From a virus (lineage: Duplodnaviria; Heunggongvirae; Uroviricota; Caudoviricetes): a stretch of DNA of 30,031 bases. A program made the position numbers and the translations under genes. The stretch covers positions 1 through 30,031 of IMG/VR virus record IMGVR_UViG_2648501437_000010; one strand, written 5' to 3'. How positions within the stretch are numbered: position 1 is the first letter of the stretch; each line of letters starts with the position of its first letter. The notes beneath the pieces are model-generated. The model did no database searches and was not told where the DNA came from. It worked only from the letters and a program-made list of their open reading frames with translations. This document shows, in pieces, positions 60 to 12,800 of the stretch.

Positions 60-434
60 TCACTTAGCCGCGTGTCCACTATTGCTGGGTAAGATCAGAT
101 CACCAGCGAAGCATTTACCGACGCCACTGGTCAGATTGAAATATACCTTCCAGTTGGAGCTGCCGCATACCGGACACTCCTTGATATTCACTTCACGACC
201 GCGAGTACTCACGCCTCCACGTCGATAAACGATACCTTCAGTGTCCAACCATTGTTCAAAATCTAATTCGGTAATTAGCTCTTTCAGCTCGCTCACGATA
301 ATTCCACTTTTAACAGGCAATATTGTGACCAACCTAAATGTTGATATAACATAAAGGCTCATGTGTTTTTCTTTTGTGGTTTGGCAAAAGAAAAGTTGTT
401 TCACCAATGAATCAAGCGTGGAGGTGTTCTCCAC
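60..434 (-). CDS. zinc-ribbon protein with a primase-type zinc-binding motif; start uncertain (GTG at 434 or ATG at 362)
   Basis: C-terminal CPVCGSS-x15-GKCF resembles the N-terminal zinc ribbon of T7-type primases (CxxCGSS...C). Sits immediately downstream of the helicase gene. Only three Cys are visible before the TGA stop at 60-62. Confidence 0.45.
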   Translation of the reverse strand: MENTSTLDSLVKQLFFCQTTKEKHMSLYVISTFRLVTILPVKSGIIVSELKELITELDFEQWLDTEGIVYRRGGVSTRGREVNIKECPVCGSSNWKVYFNLTSGVGKCFAGDLILPSNSGHAAK

Positions 435-446
435 GCTTATTTTTTA
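414..446 (+). terminator. 10-bp stem-loop (aagcgtggag / ctccacgctt, 5-nt loop) followed by a T6 tract; terminator-like only in the plus orientation
   Basis: Perfect inverted repeat 414-423 / 429-438 followed by ATTTTTTA. On the minus (coding) strand the same hairpin is preceded by A-run and not followed by a U-tract; it overlaps the helicase stop and the GTG of the next ORF. Confidence 0.35.
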
Positions 447-1784
447 GGTAACGTCTAAGATTCGCTCAATGAAGCGCATTTGTTCGAGGTTTTGTTTAAC
501 GCGAATGCTGATCCCTCCCTGCTGGTTACGCGAACCAGCAAAGTAGAGACGAGCCTCTCCTTTCGCTTCTTCTTCTTCGGTTTTGTTGATCGTTATTACC
601 AGGTCAGCAATACGTACTTTTTCGATGTTGTCGGCGGCGTGCATCATTGTGGCAACTTCTGACGCGCCACCTTCACGGTTTGTCTGCGATGCCGTGATTC
701 CAGCAACGTTATGCTTGTCATAAAGAGCACGTAAATCGGTGTAGATACTACGAATGTTGGCGCGATCATCACGAAGGTCATAACTGGCACGCATCAAATC
801 TGCGTAGTCGACAACAACCATGTCAGGCACCATGCCGTTGGCTTTCATGCTGTTAAGCATACGGTCCAGATCTGCCGGTGACATACTTCCTGACGGACGC
901 TCAACCACCCACAAACTACCAATCCCCTTCGTGGCTCCCAACTCTGCCAACTTACGATGAACCTCATCGCGCCGTTCCACCAACTTGGACATTTCTGTCT
1001 CCGACAATCTTGCATCAAAACGGTCGGATAAAATGGTGGTGTGAACCTCCAGCGAGAGATACAGAACATTGTAGCCAGCAAGCGTTGCGTTTATGGAAAA
1101 CTCACCCATTGCGGTCGATTTACCGGATTTAGCGAACCCCATGAAGAGCACCATTTCGCGCTTTGCCCAGCCTTTTTGGTACAGCAACCTATCGAGAAGA
1201 GGGAGTCCAGTTGTAATACTGTTTGGTACATACTCCTCTGAAGCCTCATATTCACGCGCTTTCAATCGCTCACTTGCGGAGGTGTAGTAGTCATAGATTC
1301 CGGTCGCTTCGTTCGATCCAATCTGCTGAACCTTGGCCATGATTGCCATCGCCCCCTGAAAGTCGCCTTTCTCTTTCAGTTCAGCAGCCTTTATCAGAGC
1401 ATCATCAAACGCTACACTTTTTGCGAAGGTTGATACCTGGTCAACCATGTACGAGGTATCGGACAATTTTTCTGCAAGAATGCGCTTAAACGCAGCAACA
1501 ACATCGGCGAATAGTTCCTCACGGATAGTCTTATCGCGTTTCGCACGCTTAAGCATATCCAGAATTGCAGATGAAGAGGGCGCGCTCTTGTACATACGGT
1601 AATAGCCCGAAACCATATTAACCAATATGGCATTGGCCGCATTGGCAAACTGGCTAGGCACAACCAGATCTCCCGCACGAGTAAGAAACTCGTGATCACG
1701 ACAAAAATATGCCGTCAGTCTGTTCTGGAAATCTTCATCAAACTCTTCGGACAGCCCGCGTCCTGTATGGCAAAGTTCGGTCAT
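444..1784 (-). CDS. DnaB-family replicative DNA helicase
   Basis: 446 aa; C-terminal RecA-like domain with Walker A GFAKSGKST and Walker B-like VVVDYADLM; N-terminal helical domain; ATG at 1784 with AAAGGAAAG RBS. Confidence 0.85.
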   Translation of the reverse strand: MTELCHTGRGLSEEFDEDFQNRLTAYFCRDHEFLTRAGDLVVPSQFANAANAILVNMVSGYYRMYKSAPSSSAILDMLKRAKRDKTIREELFADVVAAFKRILAEKLSDTSYMVDQVSTFAKSVAFDDALIKAAELKEKGDFQGAMAIMAKVQQIGSNEATGIYDYYTSASERLKAREYEASEEYVPNSITTGLPLLDRLLYQKGWAKREMVLFMGFAKSGKSTAMGEFSINATLAGYNVLYLSLEVHTTILSDRFDARLSETEMSKLVERRDEVHRKLAELGATKGIGSLWVVERPSGSMSPADLDRMLNSMKANGMVPDMVVVDYADLMRASYDLRDDRANIRSIYTDLRALYDKHNVAGITASQTNREGGASEVATMMHAADNIEKVRIADLVITINKTEEEEAKGEARLYFAGSRNQQGGISIRVKQNLEQMRFIERILDVT

Positions 1785-1827
1785 GTGCTTTCCTTTGTTT
1801 TTTAAACAAATTGTTTTCTAGTATTAG

Positions 1828-2568
1828 TTAATTAGATAGGGGATCAATAAACCGCCGTGCTTCTTCCAGTTCTTCTGGAAAGTGGGCGGAAATAAGGCGC
1901 TCTGGAACGATTTCCATTAGCCAGATAGCGGAGAAAATTGCGCGTATGCGCTTGCTGCGAGGGATGGTGCGCAAACGCTCCAGAATCCACTCAAAATAGC
2001 TTTCCTGAATCGGGTTGAACTGCATGTCTCCCATATGCTTAAAGCTAACCAGAGAGTCATCCAGACGGGTTGTTGCGCGTCTGGCTAATTTCTCTTCAAA
2101 TATCTCAATCAGTTCTGGCTGCCATAAATGCTGTGGGCGCGGCAGCTTGTCCCACAGCCGTCGTGCAGCTGCGGAAAGAACGGTGGAGATAAAGTAGTCG
2201 TATGAGCAGCAATAGCGGTCAGCAAACTGGCGTGCTTTCCATAGAGACGTTTTATTGGCAGTCGACAACTCCTGATAAGGCAGGCGTTTTAACCCGGTGG
2301 TGAACGGAGCTGTTTCAAAGTGTTCGCGACCGTGCGTCAGCATGATATTTGAGTACTGACGTTTGTATGCCTCCGTAAACAGACAGGTGGCCATAAGAGG
2401 ATGCATGTCGCGGTAATCAAACCACTTCGTCTCGAAGAGTTCAGCCTCATCTTTACAGCGCGACAAACCAATGTTTTCAGCGACCCACTTGTCCATAACA
2501 GCGGTATTCCACTCTGTCATGAAGTCGTACTGGTCGTTGTCGATGGTATCGAAAAAGATTTGGCTCAT
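1828..2568 (-). CDS. hypothetical protein, first gene of the helicase operon (possible replication accessory or loader; no NTPase motif seen)
   Basis: 246-aa ORF from ATG at 2568 with GGTGAG 4 nt upstream; 43-nt gap to the helicase start; motif site A lies 16 nt upstream. Confidence 0.55.
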   Translation of the reverse strand: MSQIFFDTIDNDQYDFMTEWNTAVMDKWVAENIGLSRCKDEAELFETKWFDYRDMHPLMATCLFTEAYKRQYSNIMLTHGREHFETAPFTTGLKRLPYQELSTANKTSLWKARQFADRYCCSYDYFISTVLSAAARRLWDKLPRPQHLWQPELIEIFEEKLARRATTRLDDSLVSFKHMGDMQFNPIQESYFEWILERLRTIPRSKRIRAIFSAIWLMEIVPERLISAHFPEELEEARRFIDPLSN

Positions 2569-2584
2569 GTGGCTCACCCGGCAG

Positions 2585-2600
2585 GTAGTTACTTACTTAT
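2585..2600 (-). promoter_or_regulatory. recurring 16-nt motif, site A (plus strand gtagtTACTTACTTAT)
   Basis: One of five near-identical intergenic 16-mers; here directly upstream of the RBS of the 1828-2568 gene. Confidence 0.4.
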
Positions 2601-2818
2601 CACAATGAGCGGATGATAGCGACTGGTGGCAGTTTTTGGAAGTGAAAACGGAAGGGAGTTGTTCTGGTGATGTCTTTTAAAAGACCTGCTTCCGTATATA
2701 TTTAATAAGTTACTTATTATTTATATACAGAAACAGGCTCCTAATGGATACCAAGAACAACATAATTTGACTCCAACCCCAGATGCTATGTCATTGACAG
2801 ATTTATCAAGGGAGATCA

Positions 2819-2827
2819 TGTTAGAAT
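2819..2827 (+). promoter_or_regulatory. candidate extended -10 promoter element (TGtTAGAAT) for the plus-strand gene
   Basis: TG-n-TAGAAT at 2819-2827 in the AT-rich divergent intergenic region; TTGACA at 2794-2799 is present but with a 22-nt spacer, so the -35 is doubtful. Confidence 0.3.
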
Positions 2828-2857
2828 CAGTGTTTTAGCCTCGTGGATATTGTCACC

Positions 2858-3916
2858 ATGCGCATGAATAGACTTCCAGGATATGGCCTTCCCGAACTGG
2901 CTTTTTGGCCTCAGCCTAAATATGAACGGAATAAATGGTCGATGTTCTGTCTGAAACTCCGTAATGATGGAACCCTTGCTTGGTATCGGCGATATGTTGA
3001 TCGTGGTATGCCAAACCACGCTTTTGATGACGACTACGATAACTATCCTGAAGCAAGAAAAGCGGCATTAGAGCTGAATAAAAACGTGAGCTTTGACATT
3101 GAAAAACTTCCTCTATCTATGTTTCAAAAGAAGTCATTGCGTTTGAAAGTTGACAAAGCACTCAAAGCCAAATCACGTCTCATGGATGAAGAGCATATAA
3201 TGCTCAACGAAGCAATTAAGGCACACGCCAACGATCCGCGAGTGACATTAAATGAGTTAATAATTAACCCAGATTACGAAACTTTGCGTCAACCCCTTTT
3301 TGACGTGCTAAGCGAGATGCCTTACTTACATTTTGTTTTTCTTCCCAAATTCCAAGTTTCACTTCAACTCGTTGCTCCTAACACTTGGGAATGTTCATAT
3401 AACAACAAAGCTAAGACAGCGAAGATCTGCTACCAAGAACGCATAGCCAGAGGTTTTGGTTTATCAGGTGCTGCACATTGGGGAAAAACAAAAGCGACTA
3501 TTCGCTCAATGCTTCTGCCGCGTGCTAACCGGTTACTGCAACTCGCCAGCGTAAAAAGAATGCTGGATGAAGCTCTCAGGAATGGGCAAAAGGTACTGGT
3601 TGTTGGCAACTTTGTTTTCTGGTTTGAGGACAAAAATCAGGTAGGTTGGAGTGTTAAAGTTGCTAGCGAAAGCGAAACCACCTCAAGAGGCAATACGCTC
3701 TGGAAAGAAGGAACTATCATTTCAAAAAATCACGGTCGAATTGTCGTGCTGCCGTATACAAAAGAAAACGGTAAACATGTAAAAGGTTATACCAAGAATG
3801 CCCCTAACGACGGCAACGCAATTCCGAGACATAAGGATGAGTATGTCGAGTTGCCCTTTGAAATTTTGGATGGTGACTTGATGTTCAGTCTGTTCGGTGA
3901 GCTTAACTACGAATAG
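2858..3916 (+). CDS. hypothetical protein, the only plus-strand gene in the window
   Basis: Long ORF (track 2843-3916 from GTG; first ATG at 2858, giving 352 aa); TAG stop at 3914-3916; convergent with the partition genes and followed by a hairpin. No motif I can assign. Confidence 0.55.
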   Translation: MRMNRLPGYGLPELAFWPQPKYERNKWSMFCLKLRNDGTLAWYRRYVDRGMPNHAFDDDYDNYPEARKAALELNKNVSFDIEKLPLSMFQKKSLRLKVDKALKAKSRLMDEEHIMLNEAIKAHANDPRVTLNELIINPDYETLRQPLFDVLSEMPYLHFVFLPKFQVSLQLVAPNTWECSYNNKAKTAKICYQERIARGFGLSGAAHWGKTKATIRSMLLPRANRLLQLASVKRMLDEALRNGQKVLVVGNFVFWFEDKNQVGWSVKVASESETTSRGNTLWKEGTIISKNHGRIVVLPYTKENGKHVKGYTKNAPNDGNAIPRHKDEYVELPFEILDGDLMFSLFGELNYE

Positions 3917-3936
3917 CTTTCATAGAACGAAATATT

Positions 3937-3968
3937 TCTAAGGCTGTCCAATGCAGACCAGCCTTAGA
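3937..3968. terminator. stem-loop between convergent genes (about 10-bp stem tctaaggctg / cagccttaga, 12-nt loop); candidate bidirectional terminator
   Basis: Inverted repeat lying between the plus-gene stop (3916) and the ParG-like gene stop (3977); flanks are A/T-rich but there is no clean U-tract. Confidence 0.4.
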
Positions 3969-3976
3969 GATTTATA

Positions 3977-4336
3977 TCAACCTTTCTTCATTAACTCGCG
4001 TTTAATTTCATCGGTTCGCATCGTGACATCGGCAGCGGTGATCGCCTCATTCAATTTCACGATGTCCTCGATTTCCTGCGGTGACTTCTCTGCCAGATGG
4101 AAAATGGCTGCTCGAATCACGTCAGAACGAGTGAACTTCTCGAAGCGAGGGATGAACTTCATCATCTCCAGCAGTTCGAAGTATTCGTCCTCCAGTGACA
4201 TTGTGCGGCTTTTAATTTTCTCTTTGCCACGAGTCGGGCGTCCCTGTGGTCTGACTGGTTGGCGCAAAGGAGTTGTGTTCTTAGCCGGTGCATCAGGCTC
4301 TTTGCGCTTTGCTAGGTCACCCATTTTCATGGACAT
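3977..4336 (-). CDS. small partition-protein candidate (ParG-like centromere-binding protein)
   Basis: 119 aa; basic, Pro/Arg/Lys-rich N-terminal tail followed by a short C-terminal folded region; ATG overlaps the parA stop (TAATG), implying translational coupling. Size and position fit a type Ib ParA partner. Confidence 0.5.
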   Translation of the reverse strand: MSMKMGDLAKRKEPDAPAKNTTPLRQPVRPQGRPTRGKEKIKSRTMSLEDEYFELLEMMKFIPRFEKFTRSDVIRAAIFHLAEKSPQEIEDIVKLNEAITAADVTMRTDEIKRELMKKG

Positions 4337-5004
4337 TATTCTTCTTCCTCCAGACTCAACAGATAATCTACAAATTCTTCAAACTCGGCTTCCGCCTTTT
4401 TGTCGCGCTCGCTACCGGTCATTTCAAAGATAGAACGACCAGACTCTTCCGCATCATCATAGACGTTGCGGTTATATAGATTGACTGGCGCAGACTCGAT
4501 GCCAAACGTCTCAACAATCTCTTTAGCCGCCAGAATGCGAGACACTTGTGATGGCAAAGCCGGGCACTGGTTCATGACCGCGCGGACCTTCACTTTATCG
4601 TTTACATTACGAACATTGTCGATAATAGGATCAATGTCACGCAGAGATTTCAAATCACGACGCTTAGGACGAAGCGGGATAATGATAACGTCGGCCATCA
4701 GCATCGCTTGTCGCTGAATTTCGGAGTCAAAGCCACCAGCATCTACCACTACAAACTCAGCTCTACCCTGAAGCGATTTTAGGTGCTTAATGATGTCATC
4801 CTGAACGTATGCAAAAGGAATCAGCTCAAGGTCTTCGTTCTGTCGACGGTCTTCACACCAGCTTGTTGTCGTGCGCTGAATATCTATATCAGTGATATAA
4901 ACCTTCTTCTTCTTTTTGACTTTCAGGCAAACGGCAATTTGCTGGGCAACGGTGGATTTGCCAGGCCCGCCCTTTGTGCCGCCAACCACAAAGATCTTGG
5001 TCAT
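4336..5004 (-). CDS. parA: ParA/Soj-family partition ATPase (small, type Ib-like)
   Basis: 222 aa; deviant Walker A KIFVVGGTKGGPGKST at the N-terminus, no N-terminal HTH extension; AAGGGA RBS. Confidence 0.85.
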   Translation of the reverse strand: MTKIFVVGGTKGGPGKSTVAQQIAVCLKVKKKKKVYITDIDIQRTTTSWCEDRRQNEDLELIPFAYVQDDIIKHLKSLQGRAEFVVVDAGGFDSEIQRQAMLMADVIIIPLRPKRRDLKSLRDIDPIIDNVRNVNDKVKVRAVMNQCPALPSQVSRILAAKEIVETFGIESAPVNLYNRNVYDDAEESGRSIFEMTGSERDKKAEAEFEEFVDYLLSLEEEE

Positions 5005-5130
5005 TGGAGAGTTCCCTTTGCGTATATAATTATCGTCTGAAACAACTTGTTTTCTTATATGTGATATAGCCTAAATGCCTACGGCTGCGGTGTAAAGGTT
5101 TAATGATAGGTACATAGGTGGGCTTAATAA

Positions 5131-5154
5131 CAAAAAACCCGCCGTAGCGGGTTT
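5131..5154 (-). terminator. rho-independent terminator ending the 5911-6330 / 5153-5926 operon
   Basis: On the minus strand: AAACCCGC-tacg-GCGGGTTT followed by TTTTTTG; GC-rich stem of 6-8 bp, 4-nt loop, U-tract. Overlaps the TAA stop at 5153-5155. Confidence 0.7.
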
Positions 5155-5926
5155 ATTGATTCATAGATCGTTTACTCAGAATGTTCACTATATGAGTACA
5201 AGCACCTGGGGTGAGATTGATTTTATTAGTCCCCCACTCTTCACGTCTTCGCATCTGGCCTCCGTCAGACTTACCGATATCCCACGGAATAAAACCACTT
5301 ACGCCACAGGCATCCTCACCCAATTCCTCTATAAAATTTTCGTTCTTCGTATCGTAAATTTCGACCAGTCCATGTTTGCGCATACTCACAGCCCAAAGAG
5401 TTGCGCCTTTTATCGTCTGTAACGTATCGCAAACCAAGTACTGATACTTATCTACGAGATAAAGGTAAGCAAAACTTGCGATGCCTAATCCCATATAATC
5501 AGCATGAGTAAAAACCCCTCTAATCTGCTTGGCGCTGACTTTTACTCCAGATTTATCCTTGATTGGAAACTCGCAGTAGGCCACGCGGAAGACTGTTTGG
5601 ACTGGCTGCCCCACATGCAACTTGTAGGATTCAATTTCTGCTCCTATCTCAAGAGGTGTGTAACCAGCACGTTTGAGTCGCTTAACTTCCTGCTCTTGGT
5701 AATCAGGATCACATGACTCAAGACACTCGCCAACAATACAGCGTTCATAGGCCGAATCAACAAGCTCGTATTCGGTAAATCGAATTAGATCGAAACCTCG
5801 GGAGATAAAATAGAACTCACCGAGAGCGATAATTCTCGTCGCTCTCGGCATTTCAGACAAGACCTTGCTGTAGTCTTCTATTTCAGGGATTAATCTGTTC
5901 GCCTGACCAATTAGAGATGGTGCCAT
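5153..5926 (-). CDS. hypothetical protein; weak GNAT-acetyltransferase-like motif
   Basis: 257 aa; segment HADYMGLGIASFAYLYL resembles GNAT motif A (h-P-x-Y-x-G-x-G-I-G/A). Start overlaps the upstream ORF by 16 nt. No other recognisable motif. Confidence 0.5.
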   Translation of the reverse strand: MAPSLIGQANRLIPEIEDYSKVLSEMPRATRIIALGEFYFISRGFDLIRFTEYELVDSAYERCIVGECLESCDPDYQEQEVKRLKRAGYTPLEIGAEIESYKLHVGQPVQTVFRVAYCEFPIKDKSGVKVSAKQIRGVFTHADYMGLGIASFAYLYLVDKYQYLVCDTLQTIKGATLWAVSMRKHGLVEIYDTKNENFIEELGEDACGVSGFIPWDIGKSDGGQMRRREEWGTNKINLTPGACTHIVNILSKRSMNQ

Positions 5927-6330
5927 GAAGTATTCTGTGCCGTTGATGGTTCCATATCATCGATTTTACAGAATTTCTTCATAAAAGACTCTACAACTTG
6001 TTTGATTCGTGAAGAAATATCACGATCTAAACACTTCAAGTCAGGATATTGTTCAGCAACATCTAAAACAAAAGAGGTTCGTTTACCGTTAGCGACAACC
6101 TCGGCCAACGGTTTAACCAGTGACGTAGAATTAGAGACCTTTTCGGCACGCGCCACATCGCTCTTAAAAGTGACGATGAAGTGCTGGCGGTTAGCTGATT
6201 CACGGCACAACATACGTCGCACTTCTACTGCGTCTTCACTGTTGTGAAAACGCATAGGAAAGCTGTCGATAACCGCAGTATTGGTGCGGATCGTCTGCAT
6301 AGAACGCGTATTGTCATGATAATTTAGCAT
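5911..6330 (-). CDS. hypothetical protein
   Basis: 139 aa; ATG at 6330 with AAGGTGGA RBS; preceded by a 209-bp structured non-coding spacer. Confidence 0.5.
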   Translation of the reverse strand: MLNYHDNTRSMQTIRTNTAVIDSFPMRFHNSEDAVEVRRMLCRESANRQHFIVTFKSDVARAEKVSNSTSLVKPLAEVVANGKRTSFVLDVAEQYPDLKCLDRDISSRIKQVVESFMKKFCKIDDMEPSTAQNTSWHHL

Positions 6331-6539
6331 ATATCCACCTTAGCCGTTAACACAAGTGTCATTGCGGCACCCCTCTCGGGGTTGAAGGCTACGAGAATGC
6401 GTAGCCTGTATGTGCCCACTTACGTGGATGCCTAATAAATCTACATCAAATTACTAAATGATTCAACATGAGCTTGAGTGAACAGGCGTGTATATGAGTG
6501 AAGATGCCATCTTTAGGATAAAAGGTAAACTGAGATCAA

Positions 6540-6776
6540 TCATCGACTCAGCTCAGGTGCCCCCCACTCACACAGCCTTTCACCTATCGTATTGTGGATA
6601 AGCAACTGTCGCTCCGTTTCCTCAGTCATAAAATCCTCTCTACTCACATAGATAGGATTTGCAGCATCGCAGAATAGCACGCCTGGAGCCTGCGTCTTAA
6701 TCACGCACCCATTTATCAAACAGCTCGCGATGAACACCAGAGGCATCTTTTTGCCGCACTTCATTAACCGTTTCAT
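6540..6776 (-). CDS. outer-membrane spanin candidate (Rz1-like lipoprotein); start ambiguous (6785, 6776, 6764 or 6746)
   Basis: Reading frame offset from, and overlapping the 3' end of, the i-spanin gene. N-terminus MKRLMKCGKKMPLVFIAS-C has a basic n-region, hydrophobic core and a lipobox-like IAS|C. Confidence 0.45.
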   Translation of the reverse strand: MKRLMKCGKKMPLVFIASCLINGCVIKTQAPGVLFCDAANPIYVSREDFMTEETERQLLIHNTIGERLCEWGAPELSR

Positions 6777-7979: not shown

Positions 7980-8045
7980 GTTTTCCTCCATGAAAAGTCA
8001 AATCGGGATGGCGGATTTATATCACATTTCACCCTTTTGTTATAG

Positions 8046-8061
8046 GTGTGTACTTACCTAT
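8046..8061 (-). promoter_or_regulatory. recurring 16-nt motif, site B (plus strand gtgtgTACTTACCTAT)
   Basis: Intergenic, about 70 nt upstream of the 7656-7979 gene start, same orientation as the other sites. Confidence 0.4.
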
Positions 8062-8294
8062 CATTCAGCATTGCAACGGACTGATGAGAAAGCACCTACT
8101 CCTACCCATCGCCAGTTATAGATGCTACCCGCTTTGTATAAGGTATAGTCGTTCACTTTTTTAACAGCATATATGGGTATGACTGTCTCCTGTCCACCAA
8201 TGATAGCTTCACCATAACATATAGGTGTCGGCAATTTCTGGCAGCCAGTAAGAGAGAGAACAACAGCTATTGTTAGAAATAATCTTTTCATCAT
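8061..8294 (-). CDS. small lipoprotein (Cor-like superinfection-exclusion candidate)
   Basis: 77 aa; signal peptide MMKRLFLTIAVVLSLTG-C with lipobox LTGC; located downstream of the tail-fibre genes, as cor is in phi80/N15-type phages. Confidence 0.5.
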   Translation of the reverse strand: MMKRLFLTIAVVLSLTGCQKLPTPICYGEAIIGGQETVIPIYAVKKVNDYTLYKAGSIYNWRWVGVGAFSSVRCNAE

Positions 8295-8301
8295 TTACTC
8301 A

Positions 8302-8910
8302 TCAGTTATACAGATTTCTATTTATTACCGGTACTCTGCCATTTACGCTAAAACTATGGCCGCCATTAAGTTGGTTTACGAATATCGAGCTAACAGTATT
8401 TCCATATGCCGCATATCCATAAACCATTGTCATGGCTCCGCCCGGTACTGGAACAGCGGACACATTCGCATATGTTGGGATTATCGCTGGAGGGTAATCA
8501 AAAACATGCCCTCCAGAGCTGTTCCACTCCGTATTATTAAGAAAGGTAAATGAAAGTGGGATATTTGCCGTATTATAGATTTCCTCCCCTTGTGCATTGA
8601 AAAAACTCATGCCCCAAGTTTCTTTTTTGGCTATACCTTTCGAAAATACGTATATCGTGGCACTAGAGTCGCTACCCTGACCTCCGAAACTGTAAATCAC
8701 CTGGTTGTTACGCACTATTCTGTTGGCTATTAATGAAACAGCTTTCGAATAGGCAACAAAAATAATCGGTGAACGATCTGGAGATATTTTGGTGTTAAAC
8801 TCTGTTCCGCCGGACAAAGAAACAACCTGCTTTCTCTGAAAAACGATAGGAGACAAAGAAGGAGACATCCAGACCTTCCCGTCAGATCGATATATCTTGC
8901 TTCCGTACAT
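8302..8910 (-). CDS. hypothetical protein (Gly/Ser/Asn-rich, beta-rich composition)
   Basis: 202 aa; ATG overlaps the stop of the upstream 84-aa ORF (TAATG); no signal peptide. Confidence 0.5.
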   Translation of the reverse strand: MYGSKIYRSDGKVWMSPSLSPIVFQRKQVVSLSGGTEFNTKISPDRSPIIFVAYSKAVSLIANRIVRNNQVIYSFGGQGSDSSATIYVFSKGIAKKETWGMSFFNAQGEEIYNTANIPLSFTFLNNTEWNSSGGHVFDYPPAIIPTYANVSAVPVPGGAMTMVYGYAAYGNTVSSIFVNQLNGGHSFSVNGRVPVINRNLYN

Positions 8911-9164
8911 TATTTTTGAAAAACCAATATGTTTAAATTACCACTAGCTCCAGACCACGAAATGGTATTTCCAGAAACCGTAAGACTTGTGTACTTTCCA
9001 TTGGTTACGTCCATTATGTAATAGTCGATTCCCAATCCCGCCTCAACCTCATATGTTCTACTTCCTGAACCAGAGGGAGTAAAATAATCGAGGTAATAAA
9101 CAGGGGCCAACGCATTGACCATCTCCTGTCTTGATGGCGACCAAACCTGTGCACCATAGCTCAT
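8910..9164 (-). CDS. hypothetical small protein
   Basis: 84 aa; ATG at 9164 with AAGGA RBS 7 nt upstream; a hairpin (9190-9212) sits immediately 5' of the RBS. Confidence 0.45.
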   Translation of the reverse strand: MSYGAQVWSPSRQEMVNALAPVYYLDYFTPSGSGSRTYEVEAGLGIDYYIMDVTNGKYTSLTVSGNTISWSGASGNLNILVFQK

Positions 9165-9301
9165 AAATATATCCTTATACTTTTAAGCAGGGGCTGGTTT
9201 AGCTCCAGCCCCGATTGAAGTTGTTTATTATTTAGGTGAATTTAACTTCGTTTCAAGCTCCTCAACCCTTTTGGTCAATTGCTGAATATGATGAATGAGA
9301 C

Positions 9302-9331
9302 AAGGCCCGATAGCGGGCCTTAATTTTTATT
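9302..9331 (+). terminator. 8-bp GC-rich stem-loop (aaggcccg-atag-cgggcctt) followed by TAATTTTTATT; terminator-like only in the plus orientation
   Basis: Perfect inverted repeat 9302-9309 / 9314-9321 followed by a T-run; lies directly 3' of the tfa stop on the minus strand, where it is preceded by A-run and followed by only a weak U-poor tail. Confidence 0.35.
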
Positions 9332-9857
9332 CAGGCTTTTGTGGCCATTCGGGCTTTGCTGTATCCACACGGTTGACCAGAACGCTGTAGCGTTCCCATG
9401 ACTCCAGTCGTGTACGCTCCTCATCCGTCGCCATATTCAGCCTGACAGCGCGTTCCAGTGGCTGAATAACGCTTTCAGCTTCAGAAAGCAACGCGGCCTT
9501 TTGTGATTCGGCCTGTTGTTGTTGCTCGTCTGCCGTATAAATCCGTTTAACCACAGCTCCGTCCCTAAACATCCACTTACCGGAATCATCAGCGCGGCGG
9601 TTGGCTGTAATATCTGGAACCTCAACGACGCTATAACCTTCAGGGTTAAGCGTGGAGGCATCTTTGGTGATGGCGACAATAATATTATTTGCATCGTAAA
9701 CAATCTTTATTGTGTCTGGCTGAAAGTTCTTCACTTCCTCATACCAGTTTTTTCCGTCTTCGGACCATAACCAGATAACATCAAAATTCTTTGTTAGCTG
9801 ATATTGTTCTTTCGTTTTAGGATTTCCAGACTTAATATTTTTTAAATGCTGCATCAT
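9327..9857 (-). CDS. tfa: tail fibre assembly chaperone (Tfa / Caudo_TAP family)
   Basis: 176 aa; C-terminal [30 protein letters not shown] is typical of Tfa proteins; ATG directly follows the fibre stop (TAAATG). Confidence 0.8.
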
Positions 9858-12800
9858 TTACACCTGTGCGACGTTATACCATGTGCCATTGATGTATTTT
9901 TGTATTGGCCTGAATACTGCTGGGTCATCACCATCAACAGCGCCAATAATGCCAAGCCCTGTAATTACATGACCTGATTTTTCATACATCACACCTTTTC
10001 GCATAGTCTGAACAACACGTGTACCCAGGCGAACATCTTTTACATAGCGTGAATCAAAATTCCCCCAGTTGTTGGGCTGTATCTGACCGTTAACAGAAAA
10101 TATTACCGAGTTATCTGTATTTCGCTGACTATAGAAATGCCAGCCTGAATCATCACCAAGCTCTGCAACAGTTGGTCTTGACGAATTTCCCCACAAGTTA
10201 AATGATGCATTACGGGCAGCGGTATTTGAGCTTGAAAGTGTGAATAACTTACTTTCCCCAGTCTGAATACCCTTTAATGATATTGCTGAACCATTTCTAA
10301 AGCGGAATACATGCACACCATTAGCATAAGCATCCAGCACCCCATCACCATTTTGTTTAAACCCGGTATCGTTATCTCCTAAAACTATTGAATTGCCACC
10401 CAGGGCATTAGCCGTTCCAATCCCCAGATTTCCGCTAAAAATGGCATTAATACCGAATATTGAGTGAGAACAATAAAACCCTCGCCCATTGTTAAAATCA
10501 AGAATAGCTTGCGCGTTCGTGCTTTCTGTCGCGGGATTAGTTGCTCCCCACTTATATGTTGTTTGACCGACGGTATAATCCTGAGTTGGAACAATAACCG
10601 TTAGCCCTTCTTCAGCAGAAACCCGCACAGGAAAAGCCCTGCCTTCAACGTAAAAAACGCTGCATACATCATCTTCTTTAAGGCTTGTTACAATGGAATG
10701 GATTGCGCGCTCATTAGTCTGATACGTCGAAAAATAACCTGCCGCATATGAACCACGATCAGTCCAGCCACCAGGCATTACCATTCCATTGAATTCGCAG
10801 TTATTCATTTCGTAATTACCACCGGCAGATGTGGTCGTTATAATCACTCTGGAAGCCAGCTCGCCAGTGCTGCCTGTGGAACGCCGGAAAATAACTGGAT
10901 ACCACTTTCCACCAACTGCATTAGACGGCGCATTAAATGCGTACTGCCGCATTCCTTTTTTCTTATCCACTTCGCCTTTGCTGTAAACATTAATGTTACT
11001 CAGGAAGCGATCTTTATCAGGAATATCCGCGCCGTTCTGGTTTTTTTGCAATGATCCAGCGGCTAATTCTACGGTTTGCTCAAGATTTAAATCTTCCGCC
11101 GTTAGCTCAATATTTTTAGAACCATCAAACGAGACGCCGTTGATAGTACATGCTGTCTGCAACTTGGTCGCTGTCGCTGCATTACCGGTTGTGTTCTGGT
11201 TACCAGCAATGTTTACACCCGGCAGGTTGATATCGGCAGAGCCATCAAACGCCACACCAGCAATTTTCCTTGCTGTCTGCAATTTTGTGGCGGTTGCGGC
11301 ATTACCAGTAGTGTTCTGATTACCAGTTGTATTCACACCAGGGATTGAATCCTTAGCGGTATATACCTGTGCCCACGCTGACCATGCTGCATCAGTGGTA
11401 TCTCTTCGGGAGCGAATGAAAACCGGCGCATGTGCACCGCTCGTACCACTCCAGCCAATAAGCAACTCACCCTCGCCAGCAGCACTCGCACCTTTCATGT
11501 GCAATACGTTGCCATACGTGGTCGGATAGCTATTGTTGTACGCCTCGTACATTTGAATGCCAGCAGTGCCTTGAGTAGAGCCGCTTAACGCCGTAACTCG
11601 GCCACGAGATACCAATGTATTAATGTTGATATCGCCTGAGCCATCAAACTTAACACCATTGATGTTTCTCGCTGTTTGCAACTTCGTAGCTGTTGAAGCA
11701 TTACCGTTCAAACTACCATTTATGCCACCAGTAACATTTAGTCCATTACCAATAGACACAACACCGCTAGTATTATTAATTGTAATCGGTCGCAAGCCGT
11801 TCCATGAACCTAACGTATCTCCTGATGCTGTTAGCATGAAATATGTGCTGCCGCCGTCATTACGGATAAAGAACCCAAAGCTACCGTAAGCAATGCGGAA
11901 ACCATTTGCATATTTTGAAACGATCTCACCAGAAGATGTCAAACCTCCAGATAATGTACCACCGGTAAGAGGTAATGCACCAACGTCAGATGCAGTTGGT
12001 TTGTTTTTCGTGTTATATACTCTTCGCCATCCTGGAGAATAATCTGTGCCATTAAATACATAGATAAACTCCGCATTAGTGAGAGCACCGGAAACACTTG
12101 TCGTTGTGGCCGTTGTTATGCGGATCGTATAATTATTTGAACTACTACCGTTATTAAATACTTCTATAACAGCTCCTGCCAATGGAATAACGCCACAACC
12201 AGTTTCACTATTTGGTATGGTTGCGCTATTGGCATAGGCCCACGCACATCGAGCAATCCATGCCTTTGTGTTAAAGGCTCCATTATTTTGCAATAACGTC
12301 ACTAACTGGGCTGTTGTTATTGCTCCGCCATTACTTCCTGTAGTTAACCAACCAGTAGGAGATGCCGGGCAACCTATATTTGCTGGCGACAAGGAAATAT
12401 TTGCCGAGCCGTCAAACGACACCCCATTGATAGTACGCGCAGTCTGCAACTTCGTAGCAGTAGCCGCATTACCTGTTGTATTCTGATTACCAGTCGTATT
12501 AACACCTGGCAAATTAATATTTGCAGTACCATCAAAGCTCACGCCGCCGATAGTTCTTGCCGTCTGTAGTTTTGTAGCAGTTGCGGCATTACCAGTGGTG
12601 TTCTGATTACCCGTAGTGTTTACACCTGGAAGATTAATATTGGCAGAACCGTCGAAACCAACTCCACCGATAGTTCTTGTCGTCTGTAATTTCGTTGCTG
12701 TACTTGCATTACCATTCAATGAACCAGTTAATCCGCCTGTAACAGACAACGGACCAGAAACTGTTCCTCCGGTTGTTGGCAGTGCTCCAATATCTGATGG

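Follow-up and report, generated by a model that had tools for sequence, protein, structure and literature searches.

What is a solitary gene, turned against all of its neighbours, doing between the replication and the partition genes of a phage-plasmid? The question is raised by a 352-codon reading frame in the window analysed here, that is, the whole stretch of 30,031 nucleotides that makes up positions 1 to 30,031 of the IMG/VR virus record IMGVR_UViG_2648501437_000010. An initial annotation, made from the letters of this DNA, had left its role to a menu of options: a replication initiator or incompatibility determinant, a regulator, or an accessory defence or anti-defence gene.

The window belongs to an SSU5/pHCM2-like phage-plasmid. 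Plasmids of ~110 kb from E. coli and Shigella are about 99.5% identical to it, and one near-identical plasmid, NZ_CP095139.1, carries CTX-M-15 and dfrA51. The gene under study, called here the cargo gene, does lie where it had been placed, with the operon of a DnaB-like helicase on its left and ParA on its right (Table 1).

The cargo gene and its flanking elements

The reading frame claimed at 2858-3916 is real, since its translation runs through without internal stops and it is under purifying selection, with dN/dS values of 0.15 and 0.085. The start at ATG 2858 is backed by the N-terminus MR[ML]..[LM]P, which is kept in the Klebsiella, Salmonella, Vibrio and Pseudomonas orthologues, while RefSeq starts the gene at either 2858 or 2864. 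The initial annotation had reckoned with an ORF that might not be conserved; the low dN/dS values and the 346 full-length homologues, all of about 350 aa and at least 48% identical, speak for a conserved one. The gene is also the only one on the plus strand in the window, as had been stated: the other plus-strand ORFs of at least 60 aa all fall within longer minus-strand ORFs, and in the RefSeq annotation of a 99.5%-identical plasmid the equivalent ~28 kb holds minus-strand CDS only, with the cargo gene as the one exception. No transmembrane segment was found in the 352-aa protein.

Table 1. Features of the cargo locus, with positions in the window
Feature	Position	Strand	Remarks
DnaB-like helicase	444-1784		follows the 249-aa gene
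249-aa gene	1828-2577	-	heads the helicase operon; left border of the slot; no Pfam match
Backbone palindrome	2685-2737	.	26-nt arms; left edge of the slot, outside the cassette; also in SSU5, Cyrano and PhiR41_1, which lack the cargo gene
Exchangeable cargo cassette	2740-3974	.	promoter-like element, ORF and hairpin; break in backbone homology; GC lower than in the flanks
Extended -10-like element TGtTAGAAT	2819-2827	+	putative promoter of the cargo gene; read directly; kept in the Klebsiella cassette
Cargo gene (family PHROG 22329)	2858-3916	+	352 aa; basic soluble protein; 40.8 kDa; pI 9.3
N-terminal half, aa 1-230	2858-3547	+	two small modules of beta sheet plus helix, with long helices between them
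C-terminal conserved domain, aa 231-352	3548-3913	+	beta-rich
Convergent hairpin	3934-3971	.	candidate bidirectional terminator; between the stops of the cargo gene and of the ParG-position gene
ParG-position gene	3977-4336	-	119 aa; right border of the slot; no Pfam match
ParA-type partition ATPase	4336-5004	-	backbone; Pfam MipZ, AAA_31, CbiA, ParA

Upstream of the gene, the intergenic region is AT-rich as had been described (GC 0.39, against 0.46-0.51 in the flanks), but it measures 280 bp (2578-2857) and not 255 bp. The element TGtTAGAAT is present in it as claimed and has a counterpart, TGTTAAAAT, in the 79%-identical Klebsiella cassette, where the surrounding bases have diverged while the extended -10 has been retained. 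An element of the sigma-70 extended -10 type (TGnTATAAT-like) that is conserved in orthologous cassettes qualifies as a putative promoter. A TTGACA at 2794-2799 stands off by a spacer of 22 from the -10 and is out of register in Klebsiella because of a 9-nt indel, and a generic -35/-10 scan returned no canonical promoter upstream of the cargo gene, so that it is the conserved extended -10, by itself, that suggests a promoter here.

An inverted repeat had been seen after the stop codon, facing the convergent ParG-like gene. Its existence and its position hold, but its size does not, as the arms are of 13 nt (3934-3946 and 3959-3971) in place of 10 bp at 3937-3968. The arms are 92% complementary, and the RNA fold has an energy of -19 kcal/mol (z = -3.9, with 0 of 200 shuffles as good). 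The hairpin sits between the convergent stop codons at 3916 and 3977, its stems are conserved in the Klebsiella orthologue whereas the loop has diverged, and with its long loop and short, interrupted T-runs it was not called by a canonical terminator scan; it may be a bidirectional terminator.

The operator-like palindrome AATAAGT-t-ACTTATT also exists, but the link to the cargo gene that its position had suggested does not stand. It forms the core of the larger palindrome of Table 1, whose arms are 85% complementary (DNA fold z = -4.1), and the complete plasmid NZ_CP095139.1 has two further copies between genes, at 61513-61567 and 94825-94906. The palindrome is an element of the backbone, with three copies per plasmid, and not one of the cargo gene. 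With Rfam, a scan of 2400-4100 returned nothing but miRNA-hairpin artefacts below threshold on this palindrome.

A cassette between replication and partition genes

The window is homologous to Cyrano, PhiR41_1 and SSU5 up to 2738-2748 and again from 3974-3979, and this break at ~2740 with a restart at ~3975 shows that promoter-like element, ORF and hairpin make up one exchangeable cassette. The entire segment is colinear (79%) only in Klebsiella SSU5-like elements. The genes at both borders are highly conserved: the 249-aa gene shares 99-100% identity with its counterparts in sister E. coli elements and 90% with that of SSU5, and for the 119-aa gene the identity is 100% to Cyrano, PhiR41_1 and pIso00225_02 and 93% to SSU5. 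A ParG-type function for the latter is suggested by its position downstream of ParA, and its C-terminus can be read as RHH-like.

What fills the slot differs from one element to the next. PhiR41_1 has PD-T4-3, with a GIY-YIG domain (PADLOC E = 1.6e-23); Cyrano and SSU5 have PDC-S31/DUF2971 (PADLOC E = 3e-41 and 2e-33); pEC7518-111k has a 564-aa P-loop NTPase; and in pHCM2 of S. Typhi the cargo gene and DUF2971 are found together. Related elements carry different known defence genes at this one locus, and the slot between the helicase/replication operon and parA-parG is a recombination-prone hotspot for cargo. Among the 733 PLSDB plasmids that share the flanks the cargo gene is present in 138 and absent from 81%, and in complete E. 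coli genomes (37 with the gene, 259 with the backbone flank) it is always on plasmids.

These figures bear on the first option of the menu, in which the cargo gene would be a replication initiator, an incompatibility determinant or a partition accessory of the phage-plasmid. Its place between the helicase operon and parA-parG, behind an AT-rich region with a palindrome, is what such a gene might be expected to show. Against this, four fifths of the plasmids with the same flanks (95-99% identity) do without the gene, unrelated defence genes stand in for it elsewhere, the palindrome is a multi-copy element of the backbone, a RepB-family initiator is encoded ~27 kb away on a near-identical plasmid, and homologues occur in chromosomes and integrated prophages that have no rep or par genes. 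The search for iterons near the gene that had been proposed yielded only chance-level two-copy repeats (1800-5200) and no tandem arrays (1800-6600). We therefore reject the suggestion of an initiator or incompatibility determinant, given a gene that is absent from most flank-sharing plasmids, the lack of iterons and a separate RepB, and consider any role of this kind very improbable. Membership of a Rep family was likewise rejected, with no Pfam or NCBIfam match at E <= 1, as was a centromere binder of the ParB/ParG type: there was no domain match, the gene converges on the parA operon from outside it, and the ParG position is already held by the 119-aa gene.

How does the cassette compare with known systems? 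PD-T4-3 is said, after Vassallo et al. 2022, to be a single-gene defence. Its gene in PhiR41_1 (PADLOC PDLC04031) occupies the identical slot, between the 249-aa gene and the ParG-position gene, and also stands alone on the plus strand, with a similar size of 255 aa; in contrast to the cargo protein, in which we find no enzymatic motif, its product has a GIY-YIG nuclease domain, and there is no sequence similarity between the two. PDC-S31/DUF2971, the alternative occupant in SSU5 and Cyrano and the neighbour of the cargo gene in pHCM2, is likewise a candidate defence gene (PADLOC-DB v2) from genomic association alone, but it encodes an unrelated protein, lies on the minus strand and has a Pfam family, whereas the cargo family has none. 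The slot further resembles the integrase-proximal hotspots of P2 and P4, whose lysogenic-conversion defence genes, such as P2 old, tin and fun(Z), are solitary, self-promoted and sited in rapidly swapped hotspots of temperate elements (PMC13586616), with a comparable turnover of cargo between near-identical backbones. Here, however, the host is a phage-plasmid whose hotspot is flanked by replication genes on one side and partition genes on the other, and the family has no characterised member.

The protein family and its genomic neighbourhoods

The statement that the protein has no recognisable motif was borne out by all our searches. The protein matches PHROG 22329 (E = 1e-257), a family annotated as of unknown function. 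Scans with Pfam and NCBIfam gave no match at E <= 1, none of the 5027 models of PADLOC-DB v2.0.0 matched at E <= 1, a profile search of PDB sequences returned noise only (E > 1), a confident structure model of the C-terminal domain had no fold match, and no effector domain was recognised in the 352-aa protein. A profile search of 1.84 billion representative proteins delineated a small family of 142 clusters, the distant members of which have just the C-terminal domain in common with the cargo protein. This domain carries the motif W-x-EG-x-I-x-S-x-N-x-G-x(5)-P-x(10)-G-[YH]-T-[KR]-N...R, while the N-terminal half is less conserved and is replaced by other N-termini in distant relatives. Ten distant members with extended or unrelated N-termini were scanned and a Pfam domain was found in none of them; a second, word-indexed search with the profile of the C-terminal domain added only 18 short fragments and little was gained. 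Searches of the literature by accession, PHROG identifier and peptide motif turned up no paper on the family and no functional data for any member, and neither the family accessions nor the peptide motifs are present in the DefensePredictor supplements. The cargo protein is a member of a conserved, uncharacterised family.

One resemblance to a known motif was followed up and dismissed. The stretch G204-AAHW-GKT211 looks like a Walker A motif, but it is not conserved, with HWGRVRG, HWGVVKS and NWLKVRG in distant relatives where GK[ST] would be expected, and no P-loop beta strand precedes it. Part of it lies in a loop and part in the first residues of the long helix 208-241, and there is no P-loop match in Pfam. 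A reading as a P-loop NTPase was therefore rejected.

Homologues are found in Gamma-, Beta- and Alphaproteobacteria, as solitary genes in integrase-proximal prophage sites, on other plasmids and in defence islands. In Vibrio the gene lies between a bona fide Gabija pair (GajA E = 5.5e-277, GajB E = 3e-254) and the gene of a HEPN_Toprim_N protein; in Pseudomonas it adjoins P4 beta and cII, OLD/UvrD pairs, an AriA-like ATPase and BubE/ThiF genes; in P. brassicacearum it belongs to the accessory island of a prophage, between genes for an Argonaute-associated-effector-like protein and a 2TM effector; and in a Shewanella prophage AbiTii is two genes away. In a Salmonella prophage and a P2-like phage of Vibrio it is directly beside the integrase. 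The 200 immediate neighbours at 50 species-level loci fall into 162 clusters, and the family has no obligate partner gene. UvrD, AAA_15/OLD, integrase and transposase are the commonest neighbour domains, with UvrD and AAA_15/OLD at the top among 150 dereplicated neighbours. Homologues thus recur beside known defence genes in unrelated genomes, an enrichment that is qualitative. Guilt by association, it should be added, also catches cargo of mobile elements that has nothing to do with defence.

The Pseudomonas loci invite comparison with the P4 gop-beta-cII module. At 7 of the 50 species-level loci, all of them in Pseudomonas, the homologue is directly upstream of a co-oriented beta gene (E = 6e-22), after which comes a convergent cII homologue (E = 9e-38), so that the homologue takes the position of gop. 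Its identity with gop (Rst_gop_beta_cII) was rejected, as the PADLOC model of gop, a protein of 133 aa, gave no match; an identical Pseudomonas protein also occurs without beta and cII, and no beta or cII gene is present in the window. In Pseudomonas, the homologue may be an alternative partner of the P4 beta/cII module that replaces gop.

Since gop is toxic, the same loci could be taken to favour an orphan toxin or an addiction module, one that would keep the element stable through post-segregational killing, and the adjacent hotspot of phage Cyrano does hold a KacAT toxin-antitoxin pair. Such a module would need an antitoxin, for which the cassette has no space, its non-coding parts being of 118 and 58 bp; no toxin domain emerged from the Pfam and PADLOC scans, and hundreds of plasmids and chromosomes stably carry the gene by itself. 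We regard this explanation as improbable.

The cargo gene might instead serve lysogenic conversion or the physiology of the host, as a regulator, a modulator of stress or virulence or a nucleoid-associated protein, and be unrelated to phage conflict. Accessory positions on the integrase side of prophages house varied conversion genes, the Salmonella copy adjoins a NEL/LRR effector gene, and a basic protein with a very basic conserved helix could bind DNA. But the Pfam and NCBIfam scans disclosed no HTH or other regulator domain, the neighbours are enriched for defence and mobility genes and not for virulence or metabolism, and the occurrence of the family in marine, soil, plant and enteric bacteria is not what a trait tied to one niche would show, so that we see this as unlikely.

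A probable defence role and its alternatives

The menu of the initial annotation can now be narrowed. A swappable cassette, defence genes in the same slot of related elements, and homologues in defence islands and moron sites support its accessory-cargo option, with defence as the most likely role, at the expense of the replication option. We favour the view, with a probability of about 0.55, that the cargo gene encodes an anti-phage defence or superinfection-exclusion factor of a single protein, expressed in the lysogen and acting by a non-enzymatic mechanism. Points against this view are that neither a PADLOC match nor an effector domain was found and that the generic scan returned no promoter.

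We infer expression in lysogeny, a protective phenotype and a binding type of mechanism, and propose the following scheme. The protein would be expressed during plasmid maintenance and would shield the lysogen, and with it the phage-plasmid, from other phages, and the hairpin would insulate the cassette from the convergent par operon. A common functional core may be made up of the conserved basic helix (aa 201-243) together with the beta-rich domain at the C-terminus (aa 231-352, which overlaps the C-terminal end of the helix). Invariant Asp, Glu or His residues are absent from this core, which would for that reason act by binding or oligomerising and not by catalysis; its targets might be nucleic acid or a conserved component of the phage or the host. 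The N-terminal half, less conserved and swapped between lineages, would supply the specificity of recognition.

Published observations on related systems are of mixed bearing. When genes without known function from P4 hotspots were put to the test, 6 of 8 were protective (PMC13586616). A screen based on DefenseFinder reported no defence system in pWPMR2-like and pHCM2-like elements (bioRxiv 10.1101/2025.09.12.675607); this miss is neutral for the defence reading, because it is what an unknown family would give. The SSU5-like plasmid p2 of Klebsiella Kp1604 lowers phage plating by 10-100 fold (PMC8969562), a phenotype that is not attributable to the cargo gene, since p2 also encodes a type I RM system and a DUF262 protein.

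For a phage-sensing protein, a full-length identity of about 50% across Enterobacteria, Vibrio and Pseudomonas is high, and it would fit equally well with a protein aimed at conserved machinery of the host, whether to counter defence or to modulate the host. An anti-defence or host-takeover factor would bind and neutralise a conserved host component or an immune system and so aid the establishment or persistence of the element. The carriers of the gene are almost exclusively mobile elements, its conservation across genera is as strong as a conserved host target would demand, the lack of a catalytic signature is binder-like, and elements of the SSU5 group are known to have anti-defence cargo such as Rad. 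On the other hand, the slot is occupied in sister elements by defence and not by anti-defence genes, and the Vibrio and Pseudomonas copies are in chromosomal defence islands, beside Gabija, beta/cII and AriA-like genes. The gene was found in 6 of 50,697 phage records, all 6 of them temperate, and in none of the virulent phages there; 352 aa is large when compared with a typical anti-defence protein; and the cargo gene is convergent to the phage operons and insulated from them, outside any early operon. Taken with these points, an anti-defence role appears to us rather unlikely, and a single-protein defence or exclusion factor remains our preferred reading.

More tentatively, and at somewhat less than even odds, we suggest that the cargo gene represents a new single-gene family of anti-phage immunity that works by non-enzymatic binding or assembly, and that would have been overlooked as the defence cargo of clinically important phage-plasmids to which present tools assign no defence, namely pHCM2 in S. 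Typhi and the pWPMR2-like elements of XDR Shigella sonnei. Protection would be non-enzymatic given a C-terminal fold that has no solved relative and no catalytic residues.

What would the finding mean for these elements? Phage-plasmids of the SSU5/pHCM2 type are common in E. coli, Shigella, Salmonella Typhi and Klebsiella, and carry resistance genes. This work points to a cargo hotspot between their replication and partition genes and to a conserved, unannotated occupant of it, a single cassette of 1.2 kb that offers a handle on what these 'cryptic' elements do for their hosts. Should the gene not be protective, the slot would still be a useful anchor for the mining of further cargo. If it is protective, it would add to the known defences a family without a recognisable enzymatic domain and with an apparently new fold, would explain why some clades seem defence-less to DefenseFinder and PADLOC, and would provide a marker for resistance of relevance to phage therapy.

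The cargo slot and its cassette

Sequence comparison places the window in a phage-plasmid of the SSU5/pHCM2 type. On either side of the gene under study, identity is 97–98% to Escherichia phages PhiR41_1, CMS-2020a and Cyrano, against 86% to Salmonella phage SSU5; for the gene region itself it is at least 99.5% to many non-mobilisable plasmids of ~110 kb from E. coli and Shigella sonnei. Window positions 98–5111 align with 99.5% identity to the complete plasmid NZ_CP095139.1 (110,850 bp), where a DnaB-like helicase operon lies to the left of the gene, and ParA with a small downstream gene, followed by lysis, tail and head genes, to the right, all on the minus strand. In local BLAST, the backbone match with Cyrano, PhiR41_1 and SSU5 stops at 2738–2748, right after a palindrome, and restarts at 3974–3979, at the stop codon of the gene in the ParG position. 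The exchanged unit (the cassette) is therefore ~2740–3974 and comprises a promoter-like element, the ORF and a hairpin. Of 733 PLSDB plasmids with the same flanks, 138 (19%) carry the gene; in complete E. coli genomes it is found in 37, always on plasmids, and the backbone flank in 259.

Features of the window considered in this analysis
Feature	Position	Strand	Remark
AT-rich palindrome, 53 bp, 26-nt arms	2685–2737		marks left recombination boundary of cargo slot
TGtTAGAAT, extended -10-like	2819–2827		
Cargo gene, 352 aa	2858–3916	plus	
Inverted repeat, 13-nt arms	3934–3946 / 3959–3971		
ORF, 257 aa	5153–5926	minus	no Pfam/PADLOC match
ORF, 139 aa	5911–6330	minus	no Pfam/PADLOC match
Tail-fibre-like ORF, 1647 aa	9858–14801	minus	

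The initial annotation suggested that the gene might be a replication initiator or incompatibility determinant. A role of this kind, or in partition, is effectively excluded, as 81% of the plasmids with the same flanks lack the gene, the RepB-family initiator is encoded elsewhere (~27 kb away in NZ_CP095139.1), chromosomal homologues exist, and a search for iterons found none.

The site of the cassette in the backbone (the slot) holds other genes in sister elements. In PhiR41_1, the place of the cargo gene is taken by a lone plus-strand 255-aa gene with a GIY-YIG domain that matches PD-T4-3 (PADLOC E = 1.6e-23), a validated single-gene system, and in Cyrano and SSU5 by the gene for a DUF2971 protein with a PADLOC match to candidate PDC-S31 (E = 3e-41 and 2e-33). 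In a spread sample of the 733 flank-sharing plasmids, pEC7518-111k codes in the slot for a 564-aa P-loop NTPase, and pHCM2 of S. Typhi (NZ_CP029876.1 91183–93063) for a 351-aa orthologue (75% identical) beside the DUF2971/PDC-S31 gene. A C-terminal fragment of a family member, 84 aa long, is annotated in some S. Typhi records (P0322). For one SSU5 clade, a survey of clinical phage-plasmids lists PrrC, PD-T4-3, PD-T7-5 and RM systems; for the pWPMR2-like and pHCM2-like clades it gives "no detected defence systems" (bioRxiv 10.1101/2025.09.12.675607). pHCM2, from a clade scored in this way, carries the gene; a Shigella sonnei plasmid that is near-identical to the window may belong to the pWPMR2-like clade.

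The stretch 9300–11225, which takes in a 176-aa ORF and the C-terminal ~455 residues of the tail-fibre-like ORF, has no megablast match in NZ_CP095139.1, otherwise 94–99% identical, and probably represents, from this comparison, a host-range module swap. A second hypervariable module besides the cargo slot lies at 5112–6322, just upstream of parA, with backbone 97–100% identical on either side; the proteins of its overlapping 257- and 139-aa genes share only 28–36% identity with the corresponding proteins of pIso00225_02 and PhiR41_1 (61% for the 139-aa gene in SSU5), and in Cyrano this place is taken by a KacAT-type toxin-antitoxin pair that lies on the other strand. Beyond the window, NZ_CP095139.1 bears ISEcp1-blaCTX-M-15 and dfrA51 (86540–88933, 98339–98815), and the lineage is thus a resistance vector.

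Putative regulatory elements in and around the cassette

The ORF is real and, as first described, the sole credible plus-strand gene in the window, preceded by an AT-rich region (280 bp, GC 0.39) that contains the TGtTAGAAT element and followed by the inverted repeat, which folds at -19 kcal/mol (z = -3.9). Promoter and terminator scans with canonical rules call neither this element nor the hairpin; more informative is the comparison with the 79%-identical orthologous cassette of Klebsiella, which retains the TG-extended -10 as TGTTAAAAT and keeps the stems of the hairpin around a diverged loop. Since a 9-nt indel lies between the extended -10 and a TTGACA-like hexamer, assignment of the latter as the -35 is unsupported.

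The palindrome upstream of the gene had been described as operator-like. Its core (2704–2718) belongs to the larger palindrome (z = -4.1), which is found in Cyrano, PhiR41_1 and SSU5, all without the gene, and which has two more copies in NZ_CP095139.1, one near the terminase genes (61513–61567, 94.5% identity) and a weaker one next to an N6-adenine methyltransferase (94825–94906). It is therefore a repeated element of the phage-plasmid backbone and not an operator dedicated to the gene. All three copies occupy intergenic gaps between minus-strand operons, that of the window upstream of the helicase operon, and the palindrome may serve the phage-plasmid as an operator for a repressor or as a terminator.

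The protein family

No motif had been recognised in the 352-aa protein, and scans against Pfam, NCBIfam and PADLOC likewise gave no match; it matches PHROG 22329, a family of unknown function. We found 346 homologues, all "hypothetical", of ~350 aa and at least 48% identical, in Enterobacterales, Vibrio, Shewanella, Aeromonas and Pseudomonas, and a scan of species-representative genomes added Janthinobacterium, Herbaspirillum, Stenotrophomonas, Xanthomonas and Caulobacterales. Among 1.84 billion representatives, an exhaustive profile search yielded only 142 clusters. The distant ones (200–560 aa) have just the C-terminal ~120 residues in common with the main family; their N-terminal parts are not related and in some cases include a zinc ribbon and coiled coil. 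A Pfam scan of ten of them found no domain.

The protein is soluble and basic (pI 9.3), with no hydrophobic segment. Conservation in the main family peaks in a very basic helix (aa 201–243, pI 11.8) and in the C-terminal domain, and W282, S289, N291, G293, P299, G310, T312 and R324 are invariant in all architectures; as Asp, Glu and His are absent from this set, a nuclease or hydrolase that depends on metal is less likely. The AF2 model is confident for aa 1–220, with two small sheet-plus-helix modules linked by long helices, and the C-terminal domain modelled alone with a more diverse alignment gave pLDDT 86.5 and pTM 0.76. The conserved helix and the C-terminal domain may form a non-catalytic binding or assembly core, and the N-terminal half, replaced in other lineages, would be a specificity module. 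The peptide GAAHWGKT (aa 204–211, window 3467–3490) is a chance look-alike of a Walker A motif (GxxxxGKT): distant relatives do not keep it, and in the model it spans a loop and the start of a long helix (208–241) with no beta strand before it.

Contexts of the homologues and proposed role of the gene

The homologues are always solitary genes, almost always within mobile or variable DNA. They lie directly after the integrase at the end of a Salmonella prophage and in Vibrio P2-like phage 1.202.O (downstream of a repressor and AAA-ATPase pair), in an integrase-bounded island in Aeromonas, and on ~105–116-kb plasmids in Pantoea ananatis. In Vibrio parahaemolyticus the homologue has a genuine Gabija pair (GajA E = 5.5e-277, GajB E = 3e-254) on one side and a HEPN_Toprim_N protein on the other, in a Shewanella prophage AbiTii is two genes away, and in a prophage accessory island of P. 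brassicacearum the neighbours are an Argonaute-associated-effector-like protein and a 2TM effector. Other Pseudomonas neighbours include P4 beta and cII homologues, OLD/UvrD pairs, an AriA-like ATPase, and BubE/ThiF genes or a deazaguanine-type modification cluster. At L004 5604–6440, the Salmonella prophage has in addition a gene for a dATP/dGTP pyrophosphohydrolase-family protein (PF04447), and the prophage adjoins an NEL/LRR effector gene. The 200 genes immediately adjacent to the homologues at 50 species-level loci form 162 clusters, which leaves no obligate partner gene; UvrD helicase, AAA_15/OLD-type ATPase, integrase and transposase are the domains most often met next to the homologues. 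The protein is encoded in just 6 of 50,697 phage records, all six temperate.

In seven of the 50 species-level loci, all from Pseudomonas (L035, L041, L043, L045, L051, L064 and L067; ~8001–10950), the homologue is directly upstream of, and co-oriented with, the P4 'beta' homologue, which is followed by a convergent 'cII' homologue. In the P4 gop-beta-cII defence system this is where gop lies; the family is unrelated to gop, and the three genes may constitute a chimeric system.

The best explanation, to which we assign a probability of about 0.55, is that the protein is a single-gene, non-enzymatic anti-phage defence or exclusion factor expressed in the lysogen. A self-promoted, insulated and counter-oriented cassette fits the established pattern of such cargo, as do a slot alternating between validated and candidate defence genes, patchy occurrence on an otherwise near-identical backbone, and homologues that stand alone in defence islands and at accessory sites close to integrases; taken with the precedent of the P4 hotspots, where six of eight randomly chosen unknown genes were protective when tested (PMC13586616), they lead to this reading. 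Accessory defence, also among the roles initially listed, is the one favoured by the slot and the defence islands.

The gene is under purifying selection (dN/dS 0.15 in comparison with the Klebsiella orthologue, 0.085 with a Salmonella prophage copy), with its start codon position conserved across genera. Its unusually high cross-genus conservation leaves room for two alternatives that we consider unlikely, and equally so, namely an anti-defence or host-targeting role and some other function in lysogenic conversion; an orphan toxin or addiction role is a minor, improbable option. Cargo in the hotspot of a temperate element is a well-known kind of thing, and many "dark" hotspot genes exist, so that specialists should find the case interesting but hardly surprising. 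The family is uncharacterised, is not represented in defence databases and shows no recognisable fold; its interest lies in its wide distribution, its presence in clinically relevant phage-plasmids scored as defence-less, and its lack of an enzymatic signature. If protective, it would be a new defence family.
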